From Pseudomonadota bacterium (GTDB lineage Bacteria > Bdellovibrionota_B > Oligoflexia > Oligoflexales > CAIMVM01): a stretch of DNA of 64,000 nt. The notes beneath the pieces are model-generated. The model was not told where the DNA came from. It made no database searches and saw only the letters and a list, made by a program, of their open reading frames with translations. The stretch covers positions 14,562 to 78,561 of the forward strand of contig JBAXBA010000006.1 of NCBI GenBank assembly GCA_037142195.1, in the 5' to 3' direction. The translations under genes and the position numbers were made by a program. Positions 38,754 to 58,857 of the stretch are shown here, one piece after another; within the stretch, counting starts at the first letter, position 1; every line of letters starts with the position of its first letter.

Positions 38754-40391
38754 TCAAGCAGATCGTCTTAATTTTACAAATTCGCCGAGTCCTTTACGAG
38801 AGCCCGTAGTACCCGTCTTTTCTTCCAAAAATTCAATAACACCCCGTTGCAAATCGCCTAATCTAGTGGATGAATTTGAAGACTTCAAGTTTCCTTCGGT
38901 TCTCAGATCGTCTCCAGACCAAGTGACATTTGTCCCGCCTGGATCTTTTACAACACTAGAGTCTCGTTTGTCGATCTCTTCTAAATTGGCATAGAGTGCA
39001 TCTTTTAAATTTCCTGCACCGCCTGGGGCCATTACAAACCCAAAGCTTATGTCATTGTCATTTAAGGCAGCTCCTCGCCCTCCCTCGGACATTACGACTA
39101 CAATCAAATTGTGTCCTTCTGCTATGGTCGATGCGAGCATATTTAAGGATAAAGCCAGTTGTCGCATCCCTTCGATATAGGTGAGAGATTTAATGACATC
39201 TTCTGGCTTATTTTGCGTATCAATAATGATACTATCTAAACTACTTCCGTCGAGGTCGTTAATATTGAGAAATAATTGAAAATTCCGAAAGGGTTTACCA
39301 GGTATTTTCACGGCGTTTTGGACAAATTTCGCTTGGGCAAGAAATTCAAGGGATGCTCCCTTTCCTGTATTCGCTTGATTGCATGCAGTTTGTACATTGA
39401 TATTTTGAAACTTGGACTCAAGTTGACCTGCCGCATTAAGAGAAACCAAACTATCAAGTAACTTTTGTTGGTTACCCAGAAGTTCCATTCTTAGTTTAGG
39501 ATCTTTTTGAATGAGCCGGTCAAATTTTAAAGTTAGATTTTTTTGAGGGTCAGTTTGTAAGTCAACATGTTTTGCTTTGACACTTTGCTCTACTATACTT
39601 ACAAAATCCTTTACGGGGCGCCCATTGAAAATGGGCTGCTCGCCGACGTTCCCAAGAATTACGTTGGTCGGATTACTTCCCTCCGCCTTGTCGTAATTGC
39701 CCCCCATATTAAAGGCCGCAATTCCCAACGGGCTTTTGATGACGCCTGTTTCACCCAAATGCAGTGCTAATTCTGAGCGATCGGTTGCAAGCTTGAAAGC
39801 TTTTAAAGAATGATTGTTGCTCATGGTTTGACTTAATGACAGAGCCGCCTGAATGGCTACTTTTGACTCATCAGGAAATGGACTCAGTTGCAAGCCTGCA
39901 TTATTGAGAATATCCGTGTCTGCTTTGCCAGTAGCTAAAATATCAGCAAACCATTTATTCATTCTAAGGTTAGAAAAACGAGGTATATCTGAGATTGCAT
40001 CAGCTCCTTTTAACTCCATATGTGCGCCAGCTTCGCCTGATTTTGATTTAATACTTGGGTTGTCGCCAGTGACTATATTTCCATCCCTTTTTCCAAGTTT
40101 AAACACTAATGGCGTGTGCACGTGATTGACGACTTTGATGGTTACCAATGTCCAAGTGTCTTGGGACGACTGCGCCTGAGCCATGGAATGTTCCAAGCGA
40201 AGAAAATGGCCTACGGATTGGGACACCATAGCAAGGTTATACCAAGCGTCGGTGGCAGCTAGTCTAGAAAGTATTCGAGGATCCGTTAAACTTGAAAATA
40301 GGGGTACACCCCCTAGTCGATCAAGAGCAAAAGCGCCTGCAAATCCAGTAAATAGTGATTGATGTAAAAATTTTCTTCTGTCCATAGTCAT
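38754..40391 (-). CDS. Tat-exported DUF1501-like protein (cassette A)
   Basis: Twin-arginine leader DRRKFL; C-terminal LIVVVMSEGGRG resembles the DUF1501 vv.sEfGR motif. Confidence 0.6.
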   Translation of the reverse strand: MTMDRRKFLHQSLFTGFAGAFALDRLGGVPLFSSLTDPRILSRLAATDAWYNLAMVSQSVGHFLRLEHSMAQAQSSQDTWTLVTIKVVNHVHTPLVFKLGKRDGNIVTGDNPSIKSKSGEAGAHMELKGADAISDIPRFSNLRMNKWFADILATGKADTDILNNAGLQLSPFPDESKVAIQAALSLSQTMSNNHSLKAFKLATDRSELALHLGETGVIKSPLGIAAFNMGGNYDKAEGSNPTNVILGNVGEQPIFNGRPVKDFVSIVEQSVKAKHVDLQTDPQKNLTLKFDRLIQKDPKLRMELLGNQQKLLDSLVSLNAAGQLESKFQNINVQTACNQANTGKGASLEFLAQAKFVQNAVKIPGKPFRNFQLFLNINDLDGSSLDSIIIDTQNKPEDVIKSLTYIEGMRQLALSLNMLASTIAEGHNLIVVVMSEGGRGAALNDNDISFGFVMAPGGAGNLKDALYANLEEIDKRDSSVVKDPGGTNVTWSGDDLRTEGNLKSSNSSTRLGDLQRGVIEFLEEKTGTTGSRKGLGEFVKLRRSA

Positions 40392-40393
40392 CC

Positions 40394-41071
40394 CTATCTT
40401 GAAATAATAAACGCATAGGATGCGAGCATAGAAGCAACTGCCTTTTTAGGATCCATCAAACAGGCTTGTTGAAACTCCAATGCTACGGATTCATAAAGCT
40501 CATGCTTCGGAGAAATACTAGGCAGGCACCTAGCCATCATTTGTTTCGCGGTATCTATGGTATCGCATTGACAGAGCTTATTTGCAGGGGTGCAGTTGTC
40601 TGCTACCACATCAGCCACCGTATTTATAGATCCGAGATAGTTTATGCTTAGACTATCTGAGTTTGTCGACAGACGATTTTCGGTTTCTTTAGACAATAAG
40701 TCTTTTCCTGCAACTGTAATGGCGTTGCTATTTACTTTATATAAATCTTTATTCAAAAAGCCTTTACTATCGACACCCGTAACGATCATGTCGTCTTTGA
40801 CTAGGGCCATATTTTCACCTAGGCATGTATCAATAGATGAAGATAAAAGTTGCGAGTTCTTTACCTGCAATCCTGCTCCATTTCCGGACACCTCTGAATT
40901 TACTAAAATGGAATTCTGTTCAGTCGATTTATTGGCATTCTCTGAAGAGTTGCTTGAAGATACGCTACCTTGATTCAGGCGCCTTTTCATTTCTTTTGAG
41001 GAATTTTGATTGGAGCATGATGCAGATCCATAGATAGCGACTAACAAGAAAGAGATAGTTGAATAAAACAT
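40394..41071 (-). CDS. Cys-rich exported or lipoprotein of unknown function (cassette A)
   Basis: Hydrophobic leader ending SASC, Ser/Asn linker, 6 further Cys; 1-2 nt gaps to neighbouring genes. Confidence 0.7.
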   Translation of the reverse strand: MFYSTISFLLVAIYGSASCSNQNSSKEMKRRLNQGSVSSSNSSENANKSTEQNSILVNSEVSGNGAGLQVKNSQLLSSSIDTCLGENMALVKDDMIVTGVDSKGFLNKDLYKVNSNAITVAGKDLLSKETENRLSTNSDSLSINYLGSINTVADVVADNCTPANKLCQCDTIDTAKQMMARCLPSISPKHELYESVALEFQQACLMDPKKAVASMLASYAFIISR

Positions 41072-41072
41072 G

Positions 41073-42776
41073 TTATTTTAACTCCTTCATGCAGGAATAG
41101 GTTTCTGTAGCAAAGTAAGATTGAAATACTTTTTCAAGTTTACCTTCGGACAGCTCAAAAGCCATTTTGGTAGATTCCAGAGTTTCCAAGGAAATCGTGG
41201 AAAGATTTGAGAGACTCCTTGCCATGTGGATGGCAAGACCTTTGGATAGTAGAGAACCGTCTCCAATAATCTCTGTCATAAGTTCATTTACGGTTGCTAC
41301 TGGTTTTTGCACTTTACCGCTAACGACACAGGCCTTTTCATTGTTTCCTATAATGAAAGACTGCAGCAAGTCGAAAGTCACGGGCTTATTTACGCCCCCA
41401 TCTAGAACCACCCATGGCTCCTTAATGGCGGCACTGTAGTTAGTATCTTCTTGAATATTGAAGGCATTATAGAGCTGGCCTTTTGAGTTGAAGGGTCGAA
41501 ATAGGATAGAAGCAGAAGCCAAGTTTCGATTTAAATGGCAGGACTGACAAATATTGCCAGACTCAGGTATTGAGAGAGTACCGCGCGGAGCAACAGTGCC
41601 ATCTGAATTTACAAGTCCACGGCGATCCCCACTTTTAAAACAGCTTGGAATAGGATTCACGACTTCACCTACTGGTCCGTTGGTGGCTGCCTGCAGCGTC
41701 TGGCCATGGATCATAAAGTGGGCGATGGCCATCCGACCATAATTGTTATTTTCAATTAGGAAGCTCGAGGGTTTAGAAGAGAGAAAGCTTACAGATGTAA
41801 AATATCCTTGGCGTGGAAGAGATAATCGGCAGGACTGCCAGCCTGCAGTTGGGGACGGACAACCATAAAGGGAAGCGGTTTTAGAGCTGACCATGAGCGT
41901 GGGCCCCAAAAGCATGTCTTTATATTTTACGTTATCGTATCCACTTTTTAGAAGTTGATAGAATTCATCTTTGAGGTCTTCATCAAGTTCAGGACTATAA
42001 TTGACTTGATTAGCTCCTGATACCTTGTAGGCAAATTTCTTAAGCCCTTTATCTATAAATTCTGCTTTCCAATCTGTTGCGAGGCGATCTTTAATAAGGT
42101 ATCGATGCTTTTGCTCTACATTTATATCTGGATCAGATCCAGCCAGGGCTATTTCCCCTAAAGTGGGCTCTCTGGAAAAGGCGTCGTTGGTGACTCGTCT
42201 GATATATTCTCTAAATGTTGCCGGTGTTTTGCATTTAAAAGTGAGGTCTACTTTTACGTCATTTGCATCGATTTTGGCACCATCTGGATAAAGCAGATGG
42301 ACATCTCTAAGTATGCTCGGTGCTTTTGCCTTGTACCATGCAAAGAGTCGTTCTGTTTGCTTTGAGTCAATTTGTACTGCAGGTGGTGGCATGGGGGATG
42401 GGCCACTCGTAGATGATGTCATTCTGTTCACAATGGTCTGATAGACTTTTGCCGCGTCTGGGTCCAATTTAGCAGCTTCTACGCCATAGGATTTTGGTTC
42501 AAACGCCCAAAAACTTGCATATTCTCCTTTTGGTGTTTTTTCGTCGCCTTTACCGTGGCAGGAAGCACAGTTAGAGCTGAAGTAAACCATCGTTTCTTCG
42601 TCGGTCAGTGGAATTATGGGTTCCTCTGTTGCTGAGGGAGACTTTGTTCCGGAGGACGGATTTGACTTTTTTCCATCCATAGTTAATGCGGATGTTGTGC
42701 GCAAATTGACTACTTTAGACCCCTGTCGGTCACAGGCAGCCAAAAATATTAGAAAGATAATGGAAAGTTTGTGCAT
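41073..42776 (-). CDS. Two-CxxCH lipoprotein, planctomycete-cytochrome/DUF1549-1588-like (cassette A)
   Basis: LAAC lipobox; CASCH and CQSCH; YIRRVTNDAFSREPT and RQGYFTSVSFL resemble PSD/PSCyt motifs. Start moved to ATG 42776 (RBS GAGGGG). Confidence 0.7.
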   Translation of the reverse strand: MHKLSIIFLIFLAACDRQGSKVVNLRTTSALTMDGKKSNPSSGTKSPSATEEPIIPLTDEETMVYFSSNCASCHGKGDEKTPKGEYASFWAFEPKSYGVEAAKLDPDAAKVYQTIVNRMTSSTSGPSPMPPPAVQIDSKQTERLFAWYKAKAPSILRDVHLLYPDGAKIDANDVKVDLTFKCKTPATFREYIRRVTNDAFSREPTLGEIALAGSDPDINVEQKHRYLIKDRLATDWKAEFIDKGLKKFAYKVSGANQVNYSPELDEDLKDEFYQLLKSGYDNVKYKDMLLGPTLMVSSKTASLYGCPSPTAGWQSCRLSLPRQGYFTSVSFLSSKPSSFLIENNNYGRMAIAHFMIHGQTLQAATNGPVGEVVNPIPSCFKSGDRRGLVNSDGTVAPRGTLSIPESGNICQSCHLNRNLASASILFRPFNSKGQLYNAFNIQEDTNYSAAIKEPWVVLDGGVNKPVTFDLLQSFIIGNNEKACVVSGKVQKPVATVNELMTEIIGDGSLLSKGLAIHMARSLSNLSTISLETLESTKMAFELSEGKLEKVFQSYFATETYSCMKELK

Positions 42777-42796
42777 TTTGAACCCCTCATACCTAT

Positions 42797-42824
42797 TCAT
42801 CGGCCCCCCATTTAGAGAAATTGA
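42797..42824 (-). promoter_or_regulatory. sigma28/FliA-like promoter for cassette A
   Basis: Minus strand TCAAT-N15-GCCGATGA directly upstream of the RBS of the 42776 start. Confidence 0.6.
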
Positions 42825-43041
42825 AAAATATTTATTTTCGGTATTTATTTCAGATAGTTACAATGTGAATATAGGATTCATTTCAAAGACCTTTTATGAA
42901 GACCTTTTATTGAAGAAGATCCCTTGCTTCTTGCGTGCAAAGGTTTTTAAGCAGCTGTTTTTATGGGGATAAATTAGAACAAGTGATTGGAATTTATTCG
43001 GCAGTGTTCCATTACTGGATTTTGGCTTCAAGTAAAAATGG

Positions 43042-43097
43042 CTTAAGGAAGAACAGCTTAAAGAAGAACAACTTAAAGAAGAACAACTTAAAGAGGA
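43042..43097. repeat. Intergenic 15-bp tandem repeat (CTTAAAGAAGAACAA), about 3.7 copies
   Basis: Read directly; between tatB and cassette A; not inside a credible ORF. Confidence 0.9.
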
Positions 43098-43255
43098 TTG
43101 AAAGCAAATGACAATTGCTATGGCTTCTTTCAGTCTAAGGTAGAAAAAATTGCTAATCGCACCAGTTAAGACCGAATTCCATCATCAAAGAATTTTGGGT
43201 TGGGAGGATGGAAAATAGTTTTCATGAATTTTATCGGCGATCGGAGTTTTATGTC

Positions 43256-43705
43256 CTAAGGAGTCTTTTTTTCGTGGGGATCTTGGGGATTCAGTTCTGA
43301 AAGAGGGGCTTCAAATTTGCTATCCCCGTGGTTTGCCAGAGGCTCATGACGATCCGTGTGGTCACCATGGTGAGGGCCTCCTACGGCATTTTCAGGATAG
43401 AGATGGGCTTGGGCGTCCACAAATTCTTCTTTAACGGCTGCCACTGTCCCATGGACCGAGTGATTGACGTCCTGCCCTACTTTAGAAAGCTCTTTCTTTA
43501 GATTGACCAACTCTTCATCGCGGAGTTCGTTTTCAGCCTGGCGCATAAAGTGATCTACCCCAGACTTTACTTCAAAAGTAACGCGCCTAAATTTTACAAA
43601 CCACTTCCCGAACTGTCGGGCCATGTCAGGCATTCCCTTGGGACCTACGAGCATAAACGCTAGGAACCCAATCACTAGAATTTCACCAAATCCGATACCA
43701 AACAT
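43256..43705 (-). CDS. tatB: Twin-arginine translocase subunit TatB (TatA/B family)
   Basis: MFGIGFGEILVI...VGPKGMPDMARQFGKW: TM helix, GP hinge, amphipathic helix and long tail. Confidence 0.82.
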   Translation of the reverse strand: MFGIGFGEILVIGFLAFMLVGPKGMPDMARQFGKWFVKFRRVTFEVKSGVDHFMRQAENELRDEELVNLKKELSKVGQDVNHSVHGTVAAVKEEFVDAQAHLYPENAVGGPHHGDHTDRHEPLANHGDSKFEAPLSELNPQDPHEKKTP

Positions 43706-43834
43706 AATTTAGACTCCGGTAAGTCTTATTGGAGGAGCCTTCATCATAGTGTAAATTAGTCTTTTAAGGAATGGTTTGAATTTGTACTTTTCAAGCTATA
43801 TTTGCCGAACACTGTCGTAGCTAGCGGGGAAGAT

Positions 43835-44824
43835 ATGATCATTGTAACTGGGGGAGCCGGGTTTATTGGAAGCGCTTTTGTGAAGCGATTAAATACTTTG
43901 GGGATAAAAAACATCCTCATTGTGGATAACCTCGGGGTAAGTGACAAATGGCAAAATTTAAATAACATACAATTTAATGATTTCATTAACAAAAATGATA
44001 TTTTTTCGCTTTTCAACAAGTCCCCTTTGGTGCTTAAAGAAATAAGTGCAATAGTTCACATGGGAGCATGCTCTTCGACCACCGAAAGAGATGTTGATTA
44101 CCTGATGTCCAATAACTTCCAGTGTAGTAAAGACTATTGGAACCTCTGTGCAGAACATTCGATTCCCTTTATATACGCATCTTCAGCCGCGACTTATGGC
44201 AATGGCGAGCTGGGCTATTCAGATAATTTAGATATAATTTCGAAACTGAAGCCCATCAATCCCTATGGGTATTCCAAACAGATTTTCGATCTTTGGGCCC
44301 TTTCAGCCCGGCGGCGCCCTCCTTTTTGGGCAGGACTCAAGTTTTTCAATGTGTTCGGACCCAATGAGTACCATAAAGGCTCCATGATGAGTTTGGTGTG
44401 TAAGGCCGTGCCCCAAATTCTTGAAACTGGAACATTAAAGCTTTTTAAGTCCCACAAAGAGGGGATTGCCCATGGTGAGCAAAAAAGAGACTTTGTTTAT
44501 ATAAAGGATGTGGTCGACGTTCTGATGCATTTTTACAGCTTACCGGTAGCAGGCATTCAGTCAGGCATTTACAACTTAGGCACGGGACAGGCCCGAAGTT
44601 TTGGAGATCTAGGTCGAGCTACCTTTAAGGCCCTCCAAGTTAAAGAAAACATCGAATGGATCGATATGCCCCTGGAAATGAGAGGTCAATATCAGTACTT
44701 TACTGAGGCCGATCTTTCCCGGCTTAGGAATCAAGGACGCTATACAAAGCCTTTCCTAAACCTCGAAAATGCGGTCGATGATTATGTCAAAAATTATCTT
44801 ATAAGCGCCAACAAGTTCTTATGA
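43835..44824 (+). CDS. hldD: ADP-L-glycero-D-manno-heptose 6-epimerase
   Basis: IIVTGGAGFIGS, HMGACSSTTE, YASSAATYG, YGYSK, FNVFGPNEYHKGSM, YQYFTEAD. Start moved to ATG 43835. Confidence 0.94.
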   Translation: MIIVTGGAGFIGSAFVKRLNTLGIKNILIVDNLGVSDKWQNLNNIQFNDFINKNDIFSLFNKSPLVLKEISAIVHMGACSSTTERDVDYLMSNNFQCSKDYWNLCAEHSIPFIYASSAATYGNGELGYSDNLDIISKLKPINPYGYSKQIFDLWALSARRRPPFWAGLKFFNVFGPNEYHKGSMMSLVCKAVPQILETGTLKLFKSHKEGIAHGEQKRDFVYIKDVVDVLMHFYSLPVAGIQSGIYNLGTGQARSFGDLGRATFKALQVKENIEWIDMPLEMRGQYQYFTEADLSRLRNQGRYTKPFLNLENAVDDYVKNYLISANKFL

Positions 44825-46080
44825 AATTTCTACTCATTTTATGGGGACTTTTTTCCTTTTATTCGTTTTATTCCTATGGGGACGTGTTTACGTTTAAAGG
44901 CTTAGACAGGACGGATGAGTCCTGGATGAGAGACTATCTCACCCTCGATCTCAGCAAATCCTATACGGATCAAGAACTTGAGCAGCTCAAGACAAAACTT
45001 TTGACCACTGGCGTCTTTACTTCCGTTGAGGTGGCGCGCACAGGGTCTGAAGTGACGGTCACAGTTGAAGAAAAATGGACCACAATCCCCGTTGCTCGGG
45101 GCGAATTCGGTGGGGGAACCCCCCTGCGGGTTTTGGGGCTCTATGATATTCATACCTTTGGTCGCCTTGTTTCAGCAGGAGCTGAGCTTAGACAGTATGG
45201 ATCGAGCGATCCCGGCTTTGTTACATGGATGAAGTCCCCACGCTTTAAAGACGGTAGATATACTCTTGGTGTCGAGTTGTGGAAGGATATCCGACGCCGC
45301 AACATTTATGATGAGGCCCGCCAACTTCTCGGAGAAGTCGAAGAGAGAAGTAAGCGCATCCGGTTTCAATATTTAGGGCCGTTGTCCATGCTAAGCTTTC
45401 TTTCAGATCGCCCTGGCTGGCAGATCGGCGCAGATGCCCATGTTATCAAGTCAGAACCTACGGACTTTGAACCACAATTTGCAGGGGCTCAATCGCCCTT
45501 TCTCATTGAAGACAAAACAAAGTGGGAATCTAAGTTTTTTTTGACGACCGTCTATGATGATATTGCCGTGAATCAATATGATCTCGATGGAATGAGAAAT
45601 ATCTTTTGTTTCGGTAAAGACAGCACTAATTCTTTGATTTGGGATTTTGAATCATTTGCTTATCAATTAAGGGGAAATCTTAATTTAAGCGCCCATTTAT
45701 ATTTACAAAATCGAGTAGGAAAAGAACTCACTTCGCAGCGTTTCTTGGGAGGATTTGACGGTGTTCGTGGGGTATTTGACGGCATGCAGGTGGGGCCTAG
45801 GTCATGGCAACTCAATCAAGAAATAAAGACGAATGTATACAGATCTAAGGACCTCTGGCTTATGGGTGCAGGTTTTTTTGACTTAGGTAAGGCATCTGAT
45901 ACTTGGGGCATCCGAGATCCGCTAGCGACCATGGGGGTAGGGATTAGAATCGCAAGCCCTAAAATATATCGACTTATGCTTCGAATAGACCATGGCTGGG
46001 CTATCGATGGTTCTAAACAAAAAGGATTTTCCATCGGGCTAAATGATTTCTTTCAGCCCTATCGACCGATTCAACATTAG
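44821..46080 (+). CDS. Omp85/BamA-TamA superfamily outer-membrane protein with a single POTRA
   Basis: Signal peptide; POTRA-like GLDRTDESW...LLTTGVFTSVEV...VTVEEKW; barrel motifs LGGFDGVRG, FFDLG, GVGIRI, LRIDHG. ATGA overlap with hldD. Confidence 0.8.
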   Translation: MKFLLILWGLFSFYSFYSYGDVFTFKGLDRTDESWMRDYLTLDLSKSYTDQELEQLKTKLLTTGVFTSVEVARTGSEVTVTVEEKWTTIPVARGEFGGGTPLRVLGLYDIHTFGRLVSAGAELRQYGSSDPGFVTWMKSPRFKDGRYTLGVELWKDIRRRNIYDEARQLLGEVEERSKRIRFQYLGPLSMLSFLSDRPGWQIGADAHVIKSEPTDFEPQFAGAQSPFLIEDKTKWESKFFLTTVYDDIAVNQYDLDGMRNIFCFGKDSTNSLIWDFESFAYQLRGNLNLSAHLYLQNRVGKELTSQRFLGGFDGVRGVFDGMQVGPRSWQLNQEIKTNVYRSKDLWLMGAGFFDLGKASDTWGIRDPLATMGVGIRIASPKIYRLMLRIDHGWAIDGSKQKGFSIGLNDFFQPYRPIQH

Positions 46081-46245
46081 ATCTAGAAGTCTCTGACTCT
46101 TTCTATTTTAATAAGATTTTGCGAACTTGGGCCCAAAGGCCGCAAAAATAGTAGCTAGGACCCGTGTCGCATTTCATGGATAATCAGATTCAGGAAAAAT
46201 GCAGTCCCGCCTAGAAGCTTTGGGCCATTCGTTCCGAGGCTTCCC

Positions 46246-49830: not shown

Positions 49831-49871
49831 GGTACCTCGCCTCCGCGGCTGGTTCGCAGGTTATTGCCTAT

Positions 49872-51284
49872 TTACTGGATGCGCTTTCCTTCGGTTATAA
49901 CACCTGTGCTGGAGATGTCCAACATGATTAAGGTATCTGCAAAAAATGATAGGGTGATTCCTTTACCAGCCGGTGTGACGGCAAAACCTAAAAAAGCATT
50001 CCTTGTATCGGTTTTTTCAATTTTGTGATCAGCAGTGGGTTCTGTTGAAGAGGCGCCAAACGTAGATACAGCGCCAATTCGAAAGTAGTTTTGTTTAAAG
50101 ACAATGCTGTCGCGATAGTCGTTGAAGATCAAAAGAGGAGCACCGCTATTTATAGAGAGATACTGAAACTCCCCTGGATAGGCTCTAAGGTCTTTACCTG
50201 CGTGGTAGCCATAAAACCCTTCGAAGGTAAAATTATCTGAGGTTTTAGGGACAACGCCATTTTGGGATCTAGGATCCCCTGATACGGTTACCTTGACAAT
50301 ACCTGCAGCGTCTGGTGTTACGCCCGCATCCCTGTTTCCCCGGTGGGAGAGGTAAAAAACATTGGGATCTGTGGGATCTGCTTCAGCGGACCAAAAATTA
50401 GTTCTGTAGTATTTTTGGTCAGCAGTAGGTCCCGTGTTGCCTGCCCTTAAGACATCAAAATAGACATAGCGCATCTCTTTGCTGGCTTCGAGGTCCTTGC
50501 TCGACTTCTCTGGAAAGCCAGCCGCTTCGCCGGCTGCTAGGTCATAAACAAGAAACTTATAAGTATTCTTCAAATTGGTTTTTTGTTCTGAAAGTGTTCT
50601 TGACCTTTCAAAATCATCAGGCACTTCGTTAGCGCCTTCTATTGCCACATAGTCTTTGCCATAGCTGTATTTATCCGCCTGTTTGGTGTCGTTTAAGGAG
50701 GATTCTCCAATATCGCTTACAAAGGCATAAAGGAGGTTTCTTGCGGTATCAATATGCATGGCCCTACGCGTAAATCCGTCAGATCCTCTTATTTTTGAGA
50801 GGGTCGAATTGGCCCCATTGAGCTTGCCAGCGTAAATGCTTCCGGAGAGGCAACTTAAGGCAATGTAGTTAGAACGCTCTATGGCATTGTTGGGCGTGCA
50901 GTCGAGTTCAAAGGTCTTGACGAGGCTTGGCTCTGTAGGATTGCCAGTGTCATAGATCTCGAGCTTGGCCTTTGTATTCACACCTGTTTCGGGGTCAGCG
51001 CTAAAGCCAGCCAAAAGATAGTTGCCAGATTCTGTCGCTTTTAAAAACTGTCCCACCCTCGGAGTAGACAGGGCCTTAATCTTATTTCCTTCGGTGTCGA
51101 GGATAAGAATCGAGCCGTCACGGTATTGATGGGAAAAGTTTCCGTTTAGGACGTAAAAATAATTCCCCCCGCCGTGGGCAGCGACTGCGATGGGGCTGGA
51201 AATAGCTGTTCCGATGGATTTCTGACTTATCTTAGAGCTACAGCCGATCATGGCCAATGCACTTAAGATTGCGACATACCTCAT
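49872..51284 (-). CDS. Hypothetical lipoprotein, probable beta-propeller
   Basis: MIGC lipobox; repeated short beta-strand blades (YFYVLN, LLYAFV, VFYLSH); same strand as and 41 nt upstream of smc. Confidence 0.65.
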   Translation of the reverse strand: MRYVAILSALAMIGCSSKISQKSIGTAISSPIAVAAHGGGNYFYVLNGNFSHQYRDGSILILDTEGNKIKALSTPRVGQFLKATESGNYLLAGFSADPETGVNTKAKLEIYDTGNPTEPSLVKTFELDCTPNNAIERSNYIALSCLSGSIYAGKLNGANSTLSKIRGSDGFTRRAMHIDTARNLLYAFVSDIGESSLNDTKQADKYSYGKDYVAIEGANEVPDDFERSRTLSEQKTNLKNTYKFLVYDLAAGEAAGFPEKSSKDLEASKEMRYVYFDVLRAGNTGPTADQKYYRTNFWSAEADPTDPNVFYLSHRGNRDAGVTPDAAGIVKVTVSGDPRSQNGVVPKTSDNFTFEGFYGYHAGKDLRAYPGEFQYLSINSGAPLLIFNDYRDSIVFKQNYFRIGAVSTFGASSTEPTADHKIEKTDTRNAFLGFAVTPAGKGITLSFFADTLIMLDISSTGVITEGKRIQ

Positions 51285-51536
51285 AATTTATCTCCCCATG
51301 GAACATTAATTCCTGCGCGGCTGGCAACAGTTAGCCCGCCCCTTTTGGTGGCTATTGATCAGGAGACTTACAATTACATGAGCCTTGGAAGGAAGAAAGT
51401 AGAAAATTTAGTTGTGAGCAGGTTTTTGTGTGGTGTATTCCTTTAATGAAATTTATTTTGTCACAAGCAGTTTTTCGACACTACCGGCTATACTTTGGGT
51501 TTGACGGCCTAAACGGCCCAGCAGAAGGAGTTTATT

Positions 51537-52085
51537 ATGGCATCGATCAATAAAGTTATGGTTATGGGCCGACTTGGCCAGGATCCCGATCTTAAGCACA
51601 CAGCTAGCCAGCAGTCTGTATGCACTTTAAGCGTAGCCACCACCGAATTTAGAACCGGTCAAGACGGAAATCGTCAAGAGTTAACCGAATGGCACAGGGT
51701 TGTGGTTTGGGGAAAGCAGGCTGAAAACTGCAAGAAATATCTCACCAAAGGTCGCATGGTATTTGTGGAAGGTCGTATTCAGACGCGTTCTTGGGATGAT
51801 CAAAGCGGACAAAAGCGCTACTCTACCGAGATCGTCGCGAACAATGTTCAGTTTCTTCCTCAGGGCTCAGGTGCGGGAGCAGGTAACTCTTCCTACAATC
51901 AAGGACAGAGCTCATTTGGCGGCTCTACACATGATGACGGCGGCAGTACATTTAATCGCGGTGGCGGCTTCGAGCCCGCATCTTTTGGTTCTTCCTTTGA
52001 TTCAGGAGCAGGCTTTCCAGCAGCAGAGCCACAGGCTTTTAATCAAAATGGTGGATCTACAGCTTTTGATGATGTTCCCTTTTAA
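51537..52085 (+). CDS. ssb: Single-stranded DNA-binding protein
   Basis: INKVMVMGRLGQDP, TEWHRVVVWG, VEGRIQTRSW, Gly-rich linker, acidic DDVPF tail. Confidence 0.98.
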   Translation: MASINKVMVMGRLGQDPDLKHTASQQSVCTLSVATTEFRTGQDGNRQELTEWHRVVVWGKQAENCKKYLTKGRMVFVEGRIQTRSWDDQSGQKRYSTEIVANNVQFLPQGSGAGAGNSSYNQGQSSFGGSTHDDGGSTFNRGGGFEPASFGSSFDSGAGFPAAEPQAFNQNGGSTAFDDVPF

Positions 52086-52140
52086 AGCAGCTCTTCAGGT
52101 ATCTGGCTTTAAATGAGAATGCCGACGTCTACAATTTAAG

Positions 52141-52174
52141 ATGCCCTTATCTTTCGGGAGAGGGCATTTTTTTC
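52141..52174 (+). terminator. Intrinsic terminator after ssb
   Basis: ATGCCCT...AGGGCAT stem followed by a T run. Confidence 0.8.
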
Positions 52175-52240
52175 TGCCCTTTTTCCCTGAAGAACCGCAA
52201 AAAACCAAGTGCTCCCAAATGGAAGAATAGCTCCCAGAGA

Positions 52241-52348
52241 ATCGACGTACAGATCGTCTGGGGTGCGCCACGCTGTGCTATCTATGGATATTTGATTTTA
52301 GAAATCGCGAATATTCTGCGGCAATCCTGCGGAAGGTTCGGAATTGGC
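52241..52348 (+). pseudogene. Possible relic of an IS200/IS605-type TnpA N-terminus
   Basis: Manual translation IDVQIVWGAPRCAIYGYLILEIANILRQSCGRFGI resembles the TnpA start (YHIVW..KYR...IYG.L..EIG.ILR.LC...G); no start codon and no HUH motif. Confidence 0.35.
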
Positions 52349-52365
52349 GCACGGCACAAGTCTCG

Positions 52366-52788
52366 CTACGAGCGGCTTTGCACAATTTTTTGAGCCCATT
52401 GCAAAATGGATTCCGTTTTGGTCACTACATCGCTCGCTTCTTCATGGGTCAGTGTTAACGCACCCTCCTCGTATGTGCGAATAGACGCAAATTCCGAAAG
52501 TCCTGCCAGCTCATACCCAAACTCCATATTGGTAGAAGCTGGAATTTTTCCTACCAGCACCCCTAGTTCATGAACCATGGGAACCGGTAGTTCCAAAGCG
52601 CATAAAACAGCTTTGAGTGACTTTTCAATGGCCTGTTGCGACAAAAAGAAAATATTTTCAGCCCGACCTGTATCATCCGCAAAGTGCATCAATAGAATTC
52701 GCGCACTGCCCAAATCGCCATTGGCAATTTTGAGGAGCTCTTGGGCATATTCCTTCTTAAAAATCCGCTCTTGCTTGGATGGACTCAC
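52366..52788 (-). CDS. HEPN domain protein
   Basis: A.GDL..A, SQQAIEKSLKAVL, VHELGVL and IRTYEE; 4-nt overlap with the upstream MNT gene. Confidence 0.88.
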   Translation of the reverse strand: MSPSKQERIFKKEYAQELLKIANGDLGSARILLMHFADDTGRAENIFFLSQQAIEKSLKAVLCALELPVPMVHELGVLVGKIPASTNMEFGYELAGLSEFASIRTYEEGALTLTHEEASDVVTKTESILQWAQKIVQSRS

Positions 52789-53138
52789 TCTAAGCTCCTT
52801 TGAAAAATTACCTTGCCCTCATCTGCAATAATCTCGCACACACCGCCGGTCCGCACTTTACGTGCAAAATCAGCTTCCACAAACAGGAGAATATCTTGAG
52901 GCCAGTCATCGTCTCGCGGCCTAGCAAAAAGGGTTTTGCGGCCTTCAGTCAAAGCATGGACGGATTCAAATAACACAGCAAAATCCACATCGGAATGATC
53001 GGCGAGTTCGCCGCGGGCAGCTGAACCAAACAGTATGACGCGTGTTGGTGAACAGCCTGCCAAAATCCACTTAAGCTTAGAATCTACCAGGTCCTTGGCC
53101 TCATCAGCAGATAGTTTTTGGGGAGAAAAACGGCTCAT
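52785..53138 (-). CDS. Minimal nucleotidyltransferase (MNT)
   Basis: ILFGSAARGELADHSDVDF is an exact GS-X10-DXD motif; C-terminal EGKVIF. Start moved from 53417 to ATG 53138 (RBS GGAGAAG), giving 117 aa. Confidence 0.88.
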   Translation of the reverse strand: MSRFSPQKLSADEAKDLVDSKLKWILAGCSPTRVILFGSAARGELADHSDVDFAVLFESVHALTEGRKTLFARPRDDDWPQDILLFVEADFARKVRTGGVCEIIADEGKVIFQRSLE

Positions 53139-53342
53139 AACTTCTCCACTTGTGAGGTTTACAATATACTGTGGTTTTAGGCTTGGGTCAAAGATGTTTG
53201 CTTTTGAGGATCGTTCCTTTTTTCCCATTTTAACTTTTGGGATCTCATCAGAAACAAAATCGTTCCAAATCAACTTTATAGCGGCGATCTGTAAGGGCCT
53301 AACAGGCGCCATCTCTAATAAGATCCAAAGGTGTGTAGAAGT

Positions 53343-53657
53343 TGCTATATCTCGAGGCCCCTTGTCGGGTGAATGTCTTGAAATTTCAGAGTCAGGCCAA
53401 GTAAAACTTAAACTCAAAATGGACTATAGTGATGGAACCAGCCAACACTCGTCACAACTGGGGATTTTTTAGAAAGGCTAAGGGACCTCATTCCTCCCCC
53501 AAAATGCCATTTAGCCAAATGGAGTGGGGTCTTGGCCTCTAACTCACCTTTTCGCAGTAAGATTGTTCTAAAACCCGAAGAAAAGAAGGGCACTCCCGTC
53601 AAAAGGAGCAGTCCAGACCGAAGTTCGATCAAAAATTCTAGAAGGAGGCAAGACTAA
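53343..53657 (+). mobile_element. Frameshifted fragment of an IS91/ISCR-family (rolling-circle) transposase
   Basis: Frame 1 reads ISRGPLSGECLEISESGQVKLKLKMDYSDGTS; after a shift near 53445, frame 2 reads TGDFLERLRDLIPPPKCHLAKWSGVLASNSPFRSKIV. This matches the IS91-family C-terminal pattern Y.sRp.ls.erl...G.v...lk....DGt....p.eFl.rLa.lvP.P..hl.ryhGvlapn...R. Confidence 0.75.
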
Positions 53658-53662
53658 AACCG

Positions 53663-54913
53663 CTATTCGACTTTTGAGATCTCTTCAAAAGACAAAGAAA
53701 ACTTATCTCCCTCTTTACCGAGCTCTTTACCGATGGTCATAGCGCTTTCCGTGAGGTACTCATTTTCACCTACCACTAAATCCAAGACATTAAATAACGA
53801 ATGAACAGGGTTCCATTTGCCATTCACTAAGACTTTAAGTCCTTTTACCTTAATTTTTCCAGGACCTACATATTTGGGGGCTTCAAAAAGATAACTTTGT
53901 GAGCCAGATGGGTCATAAACGGAGACGGCGATTTCTATTTTTCCTTGAGGGACGCCAAGTGTTGAAAGATCAAACTGCAAAACCTCACGTCCTATTTGGG
54001 GAGTTTTTAGTTCGGTCTTTAAGAAGTCAACATCTGTAACCACAAGCATATCTAGGTCCAAAGAGGAACCAACTACATTTAGCGAAAGGTTTTGGGGTTT
54101 TGCATTGGGAAATGCGTTCGCCGTTCCAGCCGTGAGTGTATTAAGTAGAACCCATTCAAACTTTTTAGCGGTGTTTTTAAGATTAAATGGCAAATTTATG
54201 GCTTGAGGGCTGTTCTGGCTATTTTCAAATGTAAACTGAGCGCTAAGTTGGCCTGCATCTGCACGTCTATATCTCGCCCAAATATAAAGGCTACTCACAG
54301 CTTCAATTTTTGCTTGATAGGATACCGTTGTTGGCGCAGAAGGAAAGCTTACAAAGCTCAATGAGTCCTCAAACTTGAAAGGCATGCCGTAGGACTCTTT
54401 TTCAATAACGATAAAACCTGGAGAAGAAATGACATGTTTATCAGTAGGAACAAGATTTTTAAAGGTCAGCTCGGGACTCATGTTTTTAAGTTCTGTTCCC
54501 GGCTTCTTAGGTATTTTAGAAAGGAGAGCTTCGATTTTAGCGCTAATAGCTTCACCGGTTTCATCGCACTTTTCGGGGGCGCCGCAATTATGACGGTCCT
54601 GTTTCATTCTCGCAACAAGTCTCGAGAGACTGGCCTTAGTAAAGTCGATTTTGTTGCCATCGAGAATGGCTTTAGCAGATTCATCTGGATTTGAAGACGC
54701 AAAAAAGGGCGCTGTCGATTGAGCGTGACATCCCCCACAATTTTGAGTCAGCAAAGGATAGAGATCATTTTTAAATGCAAGATTAAACTGGGAGTCCCAG
54801 GAGTCTGCATTTGAAGGTGAAGATGGATTCGTTTTTCTTAAATTCATGAGTGAATTCTTGCCACAAGAAGCCACAAGAGAAAGAACCAAAACTATGAGAA
54901 ATTTTCTTTTCAA
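53663..54913 (-). CDS. Lipoprotein with N-terminal c-type heme motif and beta-sandwich C-terminus (cassette B)
   Basis: TTG start with AAGGAG RBS, VASC lipobox, FKNDLYPLLTQNCGGCH, HNC...C. Confidence 0.75.
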   Translation of the reverse strand: MKRKFLIVLVLSLVASCGKNSLMNLRKTNPSSPSNADSWDSQFNLAFKNDLYPLLTQNCGGCHAQSTAPFFASSNPDESAKAILDGNKIDFTKASLSRLVARMKQDRHNCGAPEKCDETGEAISAKIEALLSKIPKKPGTELKNMSPELTFKNLVPTDKHVISSPGFIVIEKESYGMPFKFEDSLSFVSFPSAPTTVSYQAKIEAVSSLYIWARYRRADAGQLSAQFTFENSQNSPQAINLPFNLKNTAKKFEWVLLNTLTAGTANAFPNAKPQNLSLNVVGSSLDLDMLVVTDVDFLKTELKTPQIGREVLQFDLSTLGVPQGKIEIAVSVYDPSGSQSYLFEAPKYVGPGKIKVKGLKVLVNGKWNPVHSLFNVLDLVVGENEYLTESAMTIGKELGKEGDKFSLSFEEISKVE

Positions 54914-54975
54914 TGTAGACTCCTTTCCGCCTATGGCTTTTGGAATTGGCCTATCATAGGACCAAAAGATTTATT

Positions 54976-56379
54976 CTAAGATTTCTTATAGACCAGATAC
55001 TCCTGCAACTTTTGACTGATGGCATTGTCCCCAAAAAGGGTCTGCAATTTGCCTTCATCTCCGTTCAGGGCTAGGTAGTTGGCTGTAAATGCTAATGCTA
55101 AAGAAGGAGGGCTATTGCTTATGGCATTTACGGAAGCATCGACCGTGCTATCATTTTTATAGGCTCCCACTTGAGGATCTTTGCCATCAACGGTCTTGAC
55201 TCCCGCGGGGTGATAGCTAATCTGCAGAGCCGCAGATCGCACACCAGAGTCAGCCGTCCAAGCGCCAGAGTCGTCGGAACTAACACCGCCATCGGTTATG
55301 ATCATGATGGAAACAGGTCTGTTTTGAGTGGCAGCATAGGCAATAATTTGCCCGATAGTAACTCCCGCTTCTCTGTCTTTTGCATCGCCCGTAGTTCTAG
55401 TTCCGTCGTGATAGTCGTAGCCATTTTTGAGAATCACACCTACACCGGCGTTTCCGCTGATAACAAGCTTGGAAATGCAAGCCTCAGCACTTCCGTTTCC
55501 TCCTCCAAAGATGGTATTGATGTTGGCGTCTTTGGTGGGGTCGAGATTATCAGCACTAAACTCTGTTGCGAGTTTATAGGATTTTTCATAGCGGCAACCA
55601 CAAATAGCAGCCATTTGTTCCGAAAGAGATCTTCTAGAAATTTTGCATAGAGAGTCGATTCCCATATTTGCGGATGTTCTTAAAATTCGGTTCATAGCAT
55701 CATCATTTAAGGTAAGTGCAATTTTGTGTCTGTCGACAATAGATCTCACGTCGTTCGGTGAATTGATAACTACGGGAGAAAGTCCAGGCTCACGAAACCC
55801 TGTGTTTGACCTTGTGCCACCTGGTTTTCCGACCATTCCAGCCAGTTTTGCAATTTTACCCATAGCTCCCGCGTGCACTAGGTGATGACTTGGCAGGTAG
55901 AGATTGGTTTCGAGGTCATCATTTGAGATGGAGCAATATAGGATTCCTTTAACTTTGTCTTTTGTAGCCTGGTCCGTCAAAACCGAGTTGATTCCTGCCA
56001 GCATTTGGGAACTTGAGTTCCAAAGCAATCCATACTGCATTGAGGTCGGCGTTGCCGGTCCGCCGATGGTTTGGTAGGAAGGAAGTCTATCTCGTTGCCC
56101 TCCGCGACCACCGACAAAGACATTGGCGCCAGCTATATTGCCGCCACCTGCCAATTCGATCACTATAGCAGCCGTGCCACCAGCCGGGCCGCTATCGGTT
56201 TCGCAAGCTGCGGCAATGGATTCTTGACCTTGCGCAGTTTGCGAATAGATTGAGCCCAGAAGACTGGGTGCTAAAACCATTGCGCCGCCGGAAATGAGCC
56301 CTTGACCTAAAAGGTCCCTCCGAGTCACGGGCTTTCCATGACCTAGGGGGCGGATTGGTAATTGTTTTTTCTCGCTCAT
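54976..56379 (-). CDS. Tat-exported DUF1501-like protein (cassette B)
   Basis: VTRRDLL twin-Arg leader; IVIELAGGGN, GYDYHDG and IMIITDGG motifs. Start moved to ATG 56379 (RBS GGGAG). Confidence 0.65.
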   Translation of the reverse strand: MSEKKQLPIRPLGHGKPVTRRDLLGQGLISGGAMVLAPSLLGSIYSQTAQGQESIAAACETDSGPAGGTAAIVIELAGGGNIAGANVFVGGRGGQRDRLPSYQTIGGPATPTSMQYGLLWNSSSQMLAGINSVLTDQATKDKVKGILYCSISNDDLETNLYLPSHHLVHAGAMGKIAKLAGMVGKPGGTRSNTGFREPGLSPVVINSPNDVRSIVDRHKIALTLNDDAMNRILRTSANMGIDSLCKISRRSLSEQMAAICGCRYEKSYKLATEFSADNLDPTKDANINTIFGGGNGSAEACISKLVISGNAGVGVILKNGYDYHDGTRTTGDAKDREAGVTIGQIIAYAATQNRPVSIMIITDGGVSSDDSGAWTADSGVRSAALQISYHPAGVKTVDGKDPQVGAYKNDSTVDASVNAISNSPPSLALAFTANYLALNGDEGKLQTLFGDNAISQKLQEYLVYKKS

Positions 56380-56428
56380 ATTTGACTCCCATCCTGTTGC
56401 ATTTTCCAACTTTTCTAAGAACCACTTT

Positions 56429-57073
56429 CTACTGGACAATTACCGGTGCAGCACCCAAAACAGCAGCACAAAGACCTTGAGTGATGGCCTTTGTCGCCAC
56501 GGGCGTTTTTTTATCGGTTTTTCGCAGCTCGCTCACCAGGCTATCGAGCTCTTTTTTCATGTTTTCAAAAGGGGGAACTCCTTGACGCGGGCCCATCCAA
56601 AACTGAGAATAGAAAGTTTGATAGAGACTCGTCAGTGCCGGCTCCGTAAACGCTTGTTCAGGAATATTATTTAAGTCGAGATCTTTAATAGACCCTTTTG
56701 CCGCCGCTTGATCCACATAGACGCCGCAGAATTCCAAAGCTAATTTATTTACAGCAACCATTTGGGCTGCATCAAAAGCGTCGGGTTTGCTTTCTTGGGG
56801 GCAGGAACCTTCCACCTTTAAGTAGACAGCATTTACTTCGGGCGAGAGCCGCGAAACCCCAGTGAGCTTTTCCATGGCTCGTAAAATTTGATCACAATTT
56901 TTAATGGAAAGCACCGCAGGACTCGTCAAACTCGCCGATGCCGACGGGCCGGTATTAGCTCCGGCATTTTCTGAGTTTTTGCTCTTTCCAGAAATCGAAC
57001 GTCTGGACTCTTTGTTACCAGGATCGCAACCAATTAGAAAAATCGATATGAAAATTAGGTTTTTAAGTAGCAT
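56429..57073 (-). CDS. Cys-containing helical lipoprotein of unknown function (cassette B)
   Basis: LIGC lipobox, low-complexity linker, IKNCDQI, LALEFC, LCAAVLG. Confidence 0.75.
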   Translation of the reverse strand: MLLKNLIFISIFLIGCDPGNKESRRSISGKSKNSENAGANTGPSASASLTSPAVLSIKNCDQILRAMEKLTGVSRLSPEVNAVYLKVEGSCPQESKPDAFDAAQMVAVNKLALEFCGVYVDQAAAKGSIKDLDLNNIPEQAFTEPALTSLYQTFYSQFWMGPRQGVPPFENMKKELDSLVSELRKTDKKTPVATKAITQGLCAAVLGAAPVIVQ

Positions 57074-57076
57074 GAA

Positions 57077-58222
57077 TTACTCTCCCGCCTGGCAGCGTGT
57101 GGCCGTTTTTATAAAAAGAGTCTTTAAATTCTGATTGCTCGCTTTGAAATCTGCAGCTAGTTCCGACACAATTTTTTTGTCTGTGTCGTCAGTGGCGTCT
57201 TTTAAACAAACCGTTTTAAAGGTTCGCTTAGCCATACAAGTGTTGAATTCTTCAGTCTTGGAAAGCATCTCACCAAAAGAGGCGACGCCATTACCTTTGG
57301 TTAGATTTTGTGGCCAGCCAAATTTTGCGTTTTGTCCTTCAATCCAATTGTTCGCCCAGGAGTCATCAGTCGTAAAATATCCATTGATAAAGTACGGATT
57401 ATTACTGTATTTTTTGACGACGGATCCAGGTGTGTAAACTACCTTTTTGCTTGTCGCATCAAAATCATAGTAGGCCCAGGCTCCTCTAAAGAAGTCTTGC
57501 CCAGCGTGGCATCCTTTGCATTTGTTGTTATAGGTGGAGGCGTCACTTCCTGGGTTTCTTTCCACATCTCGCCCCACCATAGTGTCTGGACGTGTTGTGT
57601 CCATCATTTGCTCGAGATCAGTACAAAGATAGTTGATCATGGAAAAACGAACGGCACGACGGTTGGTGCCCAGGGAAAGAAAAGCTTCGCCAAAGGCGCG
57701 TGTGGTTAAAAGTCCAGACGCTTTTTCCATTTGTGCGTATTCGGACTGCTTTTTCTCCACCAAAACTTCCGCAAGATCAGCGCCGCTATTATCTAAAACT
57801 AAATAGTGGTCATTATTTGCTGGAGAATAGGCAGGTAAAGGAATAGTTCCTTTATATTTATTGGGGTCTGCCATATAGATGACGTCAGAATAGAGAAGTT
57901 CACCAAACGGCCTGCCGTCTCGGACTCCACCGATTACTGTGGCGCAGTAGTCATTGAGTTTTACATTAATCTTTTGGTCTTTGTTGGTTTGACCGGAGCA
58001 CCACTGCTTAACAGTGCATTCCAAAAACCCTCGATTTTGAGAAGCCAATTTCGCGGCTCCTTCACTATCCCCTTTTTTAATAAGGTCTGCCATCTGATCT
58101 AGTACATCTTTAGAAGGCGCTTCACAGGTAAGTCGATTGTGCAGTCTATAGGCTTGATCTTTTTCATCAGCCAAGACTGGTGCGCTCAGAGTCAAGGCCA
58201 GTATAGTCAGTGGAATTTTCAT
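57077..58222 (-). CDS. Exported single-CxxCH protein, DUF1585/1588-like (cassette B)
   Basis: Sec signal peptide; AYRLHNRLT...P, SGLLTTRAF, TNRR, CKGCH; C-terminal FNTCMAKRTF...NLKTLF. Confidence 0.7.
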   Translation of the reverse strand: MKIPLTILALTLSAPVLADEKDQAYRLHNRLTCEAPSKDVLDQMADLIKKGDSEGAAKLASQNRGFLECTVKQWCSGQTNKDQKINVKLNDYCATVIGGVRDGRPFGELLYSDVIYMADPNKYKGTIPLPAYSPANNDHYLVLDNSGADLAEVLVEKKQSEYAQMEKASGLLTTRAFGEAFLSLGTNRRAVRFSMINYLCTDLEQMMDTTRPDTMVGRDVERNPGSDASTYNNKCKGCHAGQDFFRGAWAYYDFDATSKKVVYTPGSVVKKYSNNPYFINGYFTTDDSWANNWIEGQNAKFGWPQNLTKGNGVASFGEMLSKTEEFNTCMAKRTFKTVCLKDATDDTDKKIVSELAADFKASNQNLKTLFIKTATRCQAGE

Positions 58223-58250
58223 ATGAGACTCCGTAAATATCTGTATATTA

Positions 58251-58279
58251 TTTTCGGCAGGTTCGTTCCGAGGCTTTAG
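58251..58279 (-). promoter_or_regulatory. sigma28/FliA-like promoter for cassette B
   Basis: Minus strand CTAAAG-N15-GCCGAAAA, ending about 29 nt upstream of ATG 58222. Confidence 0.65.
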
Positions 58280-58857
58280 GATTCTTTTAAAAATGGAAAT
58301 TTACGCCGTATTATCAATGCATTGTCTTACATTTGCCTGAGGTGTTTTCTTTTTCTTGTCACAAGTTTGTTCAGCAGTTTTTTTCGCCAGTCATATTTCT
58401 TCGACATGCCTCAAGCAGGTCCTAAAATGTTGCGTCGTTTGTCTACTGCCAATATTGATAGTATCGATCAAAAAAATGACGAAATACTAAAATGTACCTG
58501 GGGCAAAATTTGACAAAATAGATCCATTTTACTTATTTCCAAATATACCATTGGACCCATTTAAGACCATGTAAAGCGCCGGTGCAAAAAAAGGCGGTTT
58601 CTCTTTTTTGTTTTGACTAAAATAGATTTGAAGCTGACTTGATCGCTGGTTTGTGATTGAGCCCAGAGAAACCTAGATATTAAGAGATGAAGTGTTCGAA
58701 ATAGGAAGAATTCTAGAATTTCATGGGCAGCCTTAGAATTCTTATCGTTACTTTCACCTAGCGAAAATTGGACTGAACATCAATGCTTGCGGCAAATCCA
58801 TGGACAGTCTTTAGTTTAGTTCATGCTGAGAGATATCTGTTAGACTTAAATGCGAGC

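Follow-up and report, generated by a model that had tools for sequence, protein, structure and literature searches.

Two cassettes of heme-motif and Tat proteins in an Oligoflexales genome and their probable kinship with split PSD/PSCyt3 and DUF1501-type modules

Two gene cassettes on one contig of an uncultured freshwater Oligoflexales bacterium, each encoding a CxxCH heme-motif protein, a lipoprotein and a protein with a twin-arginine translocation (Tat) signal in that order, raise the question of what kind of envelope system they specify and how they are related to each other. The stretch analysed here (the window; 64,000 nucleotides, contig C6:14562-78561 of a 4.0-Mb assembly in 203 contigs, 94% complete) carries cassette A as three genes (A1 to A3) and cassette B as four (B1 to B4). 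ORF coordinates and translations agree with the layout given in a preliminary description of this DNA: all seven open reading frames (ORFs) are tightly packed on the minus strand in the order reported, with signal peptides and CxxCH motifs where it had placed them. That description saw here an uncharacterised four-component system. The component number fits cassette B and not the three genes of cassette A; the products are indeed predicted to be exported and their function is uncharacterised, but the kind of system is one already known. We propose, with a probability of about 0.72, that both cassettes are split and strongly diverged forms of the module of PSD/PSCyt3 heme-motif plus DUF1552/DUF1501 Tat proteins found in Planctomycetes and Verrucomicrobia.

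The available sections of two earlier studies describe modules of DUF1501 and PSCyt/PSD proteins that bear Tat signals and Laminin_G_3 domains and occur as many paralogues in one genome, and state their function to be unknown (Kamneva 2012, PMC3542564; He 2017, PMC5615132), with electron transfer proposed in the former. No study of function came to light in our literature search on DUF1501, DUF1552, DUF1588, PSCyt, DUF1592 and DUF1585. PSCyt3/PSD proteins with an adjacent DUF1552-type gene are said to have been described by Studholme in 2004.

The heme-motif proteins A1 and B1

The first gene of each cassette provides the clearest link to these modules. A1 (41073..42776, minus strand) is a predicted lipoprotein (lipobox LAAC) in which an N-terminal class-I cytochrome c domain precedes the body of the protein; its two CxxCH motifs, CASCH (residue 78) and CQSCH (residue 418), are numbered on a longer ORF (to 42800) that begins within the promoter motif discussed below, and a start at ATG 42776 yields MHKLSIIFLIFLAAC, a lipobox. 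B1 (57077..58222, minus strand) has a Sec signal and a single motif, CKGCH. As a reference we used a canonical set of 14 proteins from related genomes; Pfam, run on four of them, gave the domain order PSD3-PSD5-PSD4-PSCyt3-PSD2 (PSD2 in three of the four).

In profile-profile alignment with hhalign, the body of A1 matched this set at 95.9% (E 6e-9, 316 columns) and B1 at 98.4% (E 6e-15, 295 columns), while the A3, B3 and B4·B2 fusion families, serving as controls, reached 0.1-1.2%. Both proteins are colinear with PSD4-PSCyt3-PSD2 (DUF1592/1588/1585) and place their CxxCH on the canonical 'sCAxCH' column. The alignments begin at canonical position ~237-240, past PSD5, such that the N-terminal PSD3 (DUF1587) and PSD5 (DUF1595) are missing from gene 1. 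A hidden Markov model (HMM) of the canonical set, searched against the 9,835 ORFs of the genome, returned six proteins at E <= 0.01, namely E1, C1, D1, B1 (4.2e-5), A1 (6.2e-5) and B1', each named after its cassette (see below); B1 also aligned to C1 at 94.8% and to D1 at 96.5%. The ESM Atlas placed A1 beside PSCyt3/PSD4/PSD2 clusters (0.94-0.95). The heme motif is invariant, with both copies present in 22 of 22 A1 family members and the single one in 34 of 34 B1 family members.

Pfam itself barely registers this kinship. The cut-offs of PF07631 (PSD4), PF07627 (PSCyt3) and PF07624 (PSD2) were not reached, PSD2 scoring 16.6 bits in B1 against a cut-off of 25.8; sub-threshold hints consisted of cytochrome c and PSCyt2 (13.3 bits) in A1 and PSD2 in B1. 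Scans of the two families likewise gave sub-threshold matches only (PSD2 in 20 of 33 B1 relatives, PSD4 in 8 of 22 A1 relatives), and a sequence search of the PDB with one canonical PSD protein found no relative. The profile alignments, the shared heme column and the HMM search nonetheless show, at the level of sequence comparison, that A1 and B1 bear a PSD4-PSCyt3-PSD2 body with an invariant CxxCH.

The Tat proteins A3 and B3

A3 (38754..40391, minus strand; 545 aa) and B3 (54976..56439, minus strand) carry the Tat motifs RRKFL (in MTMDRRKFL) and TRRDLL (in KPVTRRDLL), respectively. The arginine pair never varies in the B3 family and is almost constant in the A3 family, and a hydrophobic stretch follows it, which supports the prediction that both proteins are exported by the Tat pathway. 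Their relatives were gathered from public data (45 for A3 and 47 for B3), and cassette loci were collected as well, 37 in genomes for A and 79 in metagenomes for B, the latter from at least 543 matches.

B3 aligned to 18 DUF1501 proteins of related genomes at 93.9% (E 1.6e-7, 336 columns), with its DLAGG, GGYDYHD and TDGG falling on DUF1501 motifs. Every B3 family member has GGYDYHD unchanged, and within it lies the G-G-x-D-x-H metal-site pattern: residues D342-Y343-H344, conserved in all 36 members, align to GGFDTH. The AlphaFold model of B3 (predicted local-distance difference test, pLDDT, 78.7) gave weak results with Foldseek alone (best E 2.4e-3, none at E <= 0.001). VIA-align superposed it on NPP/ENPP, sulfatases and MCR-1 with Z 10.8-12.0 over about 210-237 residues (root-mean-square deviation 3.9-4.7), and in a Foldseek-independent search of 48,161 chains the top 50 all belonged to the alkaline-phosphatase superfamily (Z 8.8-11.4), Z >= 8 being reached by only 58 chains. 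The sulfatase motif C/S-x-P-x-R was not seen in B3 by eye. Model and profile evidence together show B3, a predicted Tat substrate, as a remote relative of DUF1501 with a predicted alkaline-phosphatase-superfamily fold.

A3 probably shares this type of fold in degenerate, DUF1501-like form. In the ESM Atlas, 24 of its 30 nearest clusters carry DUF1501, with a feature similarity of 0.95 to DUF1501 clusters, and its Atlas model, of low confidence (pLDDT 0.49), reached template-modelling (TM) scores of 0.50-0.58 to DUF1501/DUF1552 clusters, compared with 0.36 to Phosphodiest and 0.39 to Sulfatase. Sequence methods gave less. Pfam DUF1501 (PF07394) and DUF1552 (PF07586) had no hit in A3, in B3, or in 26 A3-family and 36 B3-family members, and PDB searches with the A3 and B3 family profiles found no relative. 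Adding diverged A3 copies lifted the hhalign match to DUF1501 only to 33%. An A3 profile search of 1.84 billion representatives returned just 88 clusters. Eight of these matches, including the five weakest full-length ones, were scanned by Pfam and had neither DUF1501 nor a related family (one had a sub-threshold, unrelated SOGP_4th only); local HMM scores on ten matches, the same five among them, were too weak to be counted.

These alignments also bear on the matches that had been drawn between the two cassettes by eye. None is significant in direct comparison, and two of the three are real by way of the canonical families. RQGYFTS.. in A1 and ASGLLTT.. in B1, with the CxxCH that follows, fall on the same PSCyt3 columns in hhalign to the canonical set and mark the start of that domain. 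VVMSEGG in A3 and IITDGG in B3 both align to the DUF1501 'SDFGR' strand, strongly for B3 and weakly for A3. The lipoprotein pairing of A2 with B2 gains no such backing (hhalign 0.4%); in the alignment of B2 to the canonical set, itself insignificant, the paired motif falls on the start of PSD3. For gene 1, the comparison supports homology of A and B at superfamily level, linked through canonical relatives, and for the Tat gene the same kinship appears firm for B3 and probable for A3. The ancient duplication suggested in the preliminary description is a postulated origin: A and B fall into distinct subfamilies whose distributions differ, and B has its true recent paralogue elsewhere, on another contig.

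Middle lipoproteins, cytochrome domains and sister cassettes

Six such cassettes of five types occur in this one 4-Mb genome. The paralogue of B, termed B', is a complete four-gene cassette on contig C36 (C36:19928-24544, plus strand) with 66, 38, 60 and 42% identity for genes 1 to 4. Cassette C (C21:30383-34438) has three genes: C1, a 643-aa lipoprotein with sub-threshold PSCyt3 (23.1 bits; cut-off 27) and PSD2 (17.5 bits; cut-off 25.8) and a C-terminal cytochrome c domain (Cytochrom_C, 22.8 bits; cut-off 21.3); C2, a 240-aa lipoprotein; and C3, a Tat protein with a DUF1501 match at 6e-12. Cassette D (contigs C94/C118) sets a protein with PSD2 and cytochrome c domains beside a clear DUF1501 protein and has a fourth gene of 392 aa to which no family was assigned, and cassette E (C29:8498-11436) is a pair of PSD-type and DUF1501-type genes. 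Types C and D are each kept in seven related loci.

The middle lipoproteins bear on how the canonical protein was split. C2 matched the PSD3-PSD5 front of canonical proteins at 90.6-94.4%, and in cassette C the canonical protein is therefore divided, with its halves encoded in swapped order. A2 (40394..41071, minus strand; 225 aa), a Cys-rich lipoprotein and the conserved middle gene of its cassette, and B2 (56429..57073, minus strand; 214 aa), also a lipoprotein, occupy the same gene position as C2. A2 has no Pfam match, and in hhalign neither A2 nor B2 rose above the range 0.1-7.7% when compared with the other, with C2, with PSD3-PSD5 or with controls.

What is split in cassette B is a different protein. 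B4 (53663..54913, minus strand), also a lipoprotein, combines a cytochrome c domain (CGGCH) with a further domain at its C-terminus. B-type loci with 3.6 kb or more of upstream sequence number 33, and in 26 of them a middle gene of ~715 aa joins cytochrome c, Laminin_G_3, the C-terminal domain of B4 and the B2 domain; B2 is homologous to the C-terminal domain of this fused protein (100%, E 4e-59). The split form B1-B2-B3-B4 is found in six of the 33, and one lacks a middle match. B4 is thus the front part of the fused protein, separated from it and relocated to a position behind B3. The preliminary description had located the fusion-fission difference between A1 and B4; their cytochrome domains do seem related, with the front of A1 matching B4 at 50% and fused relatives of B4 at 76%, but the actual fission in B concerns the cytochrome c-Laminin_G_3-B2 protein. 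That cytochrome c domains move between genes holds more widely, as a class-I domain is always present, though in different genes: N-terminal in A1, C-terminal in C1 and D1, and encoded separately as B4. Gene order is otherwise stable, the B-type order occurring in 32 of 33 loci and A1-A2-A3 in 21 of the 23 loci with enough upstream DNA.

Within the phylum of the window, the A3 family is present in 32 of 131 genomes (14 of 55 genera) and the B3 family in 42 of 131 (24 of 55). The nearest public copy of A3, 86% identical, belongs to an Oligoflexales metagenome-assembled genome. Titles of A3 genome matches name Oligoflexales, Silvanigrellaceae/Silvanigrellales, Myxococcales and Polyangiaceae or, where the title is less specific, Pseudomonadota/Proteobacteria, Oligoflexia and (one) Betaproteobacteria. 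Cassette A is present in genomes of the Silvanigrellaceae, a family with cultured members. No relative of A3 or B3 was found on viral contigs. Some genomes of the same class have a second A-type cassette (loci L194-L197, in genomes G115, G110, G107 and G108), in which A1 is well kept (E ~1e-150) and A3 diverges much faster (E ~1e-27 to 1e-30).

Compared with the PSCyt3/PSD (DUF1587-DUF1595-DUF1592-DUF1588-DUF1585) plus DUF1552 modules, A and B are alike in the colinear body, the CxxCH column and the Tat partner downstream, and their relatives share Laminin_G_3 lectin-type and extra cytochrome c domains. They differ in that their Pfam matches stay below cut-off, gene 1 lacks PSD3-PSD5, PSD3-PSD5 is in one cassette type a separate lipoprotein after gene 1, and the host belongs to the Oligoflexales rather than the Planctomycetes-Verrucomicrobia-Chlamydiae (PVC) group. 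The DUF1501 (PF07394) plus PSCyt1/PSCyt2/PSD1 modules of that group, as far as the available text of PMC3542564 describes them, likewise pair a Tat- or signal-bearing DUF1501-type protein with a cytochrome-motif partner and show many paralogous modules per genome and domain shuffling; here the partner is of PSCyt3/PSD4/PSD2 type, not PSCyt2/PSD1, and B3 is a remote DUF1501 relative with no Pfam match, A3 being remoter still. With the alkaline-phosphatase superfamily (NPP/ENPP, type I sulfatases, EptA/MCR-1), B3 shares the core fold of its predicted model at a sequence identity of 5-13%.

Several features surround the cassettes. The immediate upstream neighbour of cassette A, in the same orientation, is a TatA/B-family gene (43256-43705, minus strand; PF02416, E 3.9e-7), and the spacer between it and A1 contains, by eye, three to four tandem units of ~15 nt (CTTTAAGTTGTTCTT-like; about 43045-43100, minus strand). 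Convergent with A3 is a small cbb3-type cytochrome c gene (38047-38526, plus strand), and a hairpin with a 9-bp stem (38582-38603) separates the two. A terminator-like hairpin lies 3' of B4 (53591..53610, minus strand; a pattern match only), and just downstream of cassette B is a HEPN and nucleotidyltransferase pair of toxin-antitoxin type (52366-53417, minus strand). The 635-nt spacer upstream of B1 (58223-58857) has no ORF of at least 80 aa and no Rfam match; the whole window had none in Rfam either. On contig C36, B' is preceded by three tandem copies of CATGGCGTAGGGACT.

Promoters, alternative readings and meaning

Both cassettes are preceded by sigma-28-like promoter motifs at the sites originally reported. 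That of A (42797..42824, minus strand) reads TCAAT-N15-GCCGATGA and ends 20 nt before ATG 42776; that of B (58251..58278, minus strand) reads TAAAG-N15-GCCGAAAA and ends 28 nt before the ATG of B1. The Escherichia coli sigma-28 consensus is TAAA-N15-GCCGATAA-like, and each motif departs from consensus in one box, A in the -35 element (TCAA) and B in the -10 element (GCCGAAAA). The window also encodes fliA, the sigma-28 gene (26309..26983, minus strand, equal to C6:40870-41544 of the assembly; TIGR02479 at 280 bits, above cut-off). A perfect GCCGATAA lies at 43232-43239, 3' of the stop codon of the TatA/B-family gene.

Searched genome-wide as [TC][ACT]AA-N15/16-GCCGA, the motif was well placed (10-45 nt ahead of an ORF encoding 100 aa or more) at 21 of 181 sites (11.6%), against 17 of 861 (2.0%) for seven permuted cores; the site of A is missing from this count because its longest ORF begins inside the motif. 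The enrichment confirms a genuine position-specific promoter class in this genome, and we regard it as shown, from motif statistics, that T[ACT]AA-N15/16-GCCGA is a real class and that both operons start with it. The 20 other well-placed targets comprise FHA/HD, response-regulator, cNMP-channel, Lon, CcmE, TPR and lectin-like proteins and 11 unknowns; the ccmE heme chaperone gene (C131:1444-1899, minus strand) has the motif 30 nt upstream of its start. Near the start of A1 orthologues the full motif was found in 8 of 23 loci, compared with ~1% expected from base frequencies (an estimate). Upstream of B', GCCGATAT ends at the same -28 position as in B, with no TAAA box at N15-16. Transcript evidence amounted to a single 274-nt metatranscriptome contig (38989-39262) inside A3, from a run with 5% of the sampled words; two further RNA runs yielded nothing.

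A number of results weigh against taking A and B as two such modules. None of the seven proteins matches a Pfam or NCBIfam model at cut-off. BLASTP between counterparts is not significant (A1/B1 E 0.33; A2/B2 E 1.4; A3/B3 E 1.9; A1 N-terminus against B4 E 0.016), nor is direct hhalign of the family profiles (A1-B1 7.3%, A2-B2 0.4%, A3-B3 6.9-14%, the widest range given by A3-B3 comparisons being 6.9-27.8%), and B2 (0.3-7.7%) and A2 (0.7-2.8%) match PSD3-PSD5 insignificantly. A3 aligns to DUF1501 weakly (23-33% over 74-97 columns at the SE(G/F)GR region), its stretch opposite the D-x-H site (DLDG..LD) has no His, leaving it without D-x-H, and its Atlas model is of low confidence. The A3 figures, with the lack of a Pfam hit in all 26 A3-family members, also favour the view that A3 is an unrelated Tat-exported protein that merely stands behind a PSD-type gene and is not the counterpart of B3. 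Against this speak the 24 of 30 nearest Atlas clusters with DUF1501, the higher TM scores to DUF1501/DUF1552 (0.50-0.58) than to Phosphodiest or Sulfatase (0.36-0.39), and the constant position of the weak hhalign matches, which in every case cover the equivalent SE(G/F)GR strand, with controls at 0.1-0.3%; we hold an unrelated A3 to be very unlikely. Kinship with the known modules could also be granted and the chemistry read differently, as a true redox system in which c-type heme proteins exchange electrons with a cofactor-bearing Tat enzyme, for oxidative or reductive periplasmic chemistry instead of hydrolysis. The invariant CxxCH in all families, the extra class-I cytochrome c domain in all cassette types, the typical export of cofactor-loaded enzymes by the Tat pathway and the shared motif of the CcmE gene all suit this reading, which the preliminary description shared with the available text of Kamneva 2012 (PMC3542564). 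It is opposed by the modelled fold of B3, that of the alkaline-phosphatase superfamily, and by the Pfam/NCBIfam scans, which matched no Fe-S, molybdopterin or flavin family. To our knowledge, the known members of that superfamily are metallo-hydrolases, transferases or mutases without redox cofactors. We consider a redox system of this kind unlikely.

The regulatory part of the picture has a rival of its own, in which the shared motif has no regulatory meaning here, being either a chance match or read by a sigma factor other than FliA. Both motifs are imperfect, cassettes C and D have none, and B' and E have a -10-like element only. To this can be added that the full motif occurs in none of 33 distant B1 loci, that no exact GCCGA lies within 140 nt upstream of the longest-ORF start of any of eight flagellin genes (two or three of these have a relaxed version, as judged by eye), and that the 20 other well-placed targets include no flagellar gene. 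The last two points speak against the earlier claim of expression with the late flagellar programme. Position-specific enrichment (11.6% against 2.0%) and retention in 8 of 23 A1 orthologue loci (~1% expected, as estimated) run the other way, as does the identity of the motif with the published FliA logo of Bdellovibrio bacteriovorus, whose attack-phase promoters have TTAAG-N16-CCGATA in 92 of 140 cases according to the available text of Karunker 2013 (PMC3627812). On the same text, the likeness extends to motif shape, spacing and short leaders and to downstream genes that mostly encode non-flagellar exported or signalling proteins, with the differences that the host here is an Oligoflexales bacterium, that the motif is known in it from sequence and that its flagellins lack the exact GCCGA. 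We find a motif devoid of regulatory meaning improbable.

If the cassettes are split PSD/PSCyt3 and DUF1501-type modules, as we favour, their working might be pictured as follows. The middle lipoprotein would take the place of PSD3-PSD5 at the N-terminus of the one-piece canonical protein, a replacement shown only for cassette C, and A3 would retain the fold of B3 with the D-x-H metal site lost. The products could assemble into a lipid-anchored periplasmic complex, in which the subunit of phosphatase/sulfatase fold may have as its target an esterified glycan, either of the envelope or extracellular, and the heme subunit may bind the substrate or supply or sense electrons. FliA would turn the operons on in motile cells, comparable to many non-flagellar genes of Bdellovibrio bacteriovorus. 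Taken to its full extent, this picture would have the modules dismantled in Oligoflexia into a lipid-anchored heme body, a PSD3-PSD5-like lipoprotein, a free cytochrome and a Tat enzyme, forming a FliA-controlled envelope machine of the motile phase that couples c-type heme chemistry to the removal of ester groups from a polymer of external or prey origin, with the phosphatase-fold subunit of A as a metal-site-less, non-catalytic binder. As a whole, we offer this scenario as speculation that is decidedly unlikely to hold in every part.

In Planctomycetes and Verrucomicrobia, the modules of PSCyt/PSD with DUF1501 or DUF1552 rank with the largest gene families that still lack an explanation. Our data suggest that versions of them invisible to Pfam exist beyond the PVC group, and that their domains can be split and reordered. 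The sigma-28-type promoter at two of the cassettes may offer a handle on when they are used.

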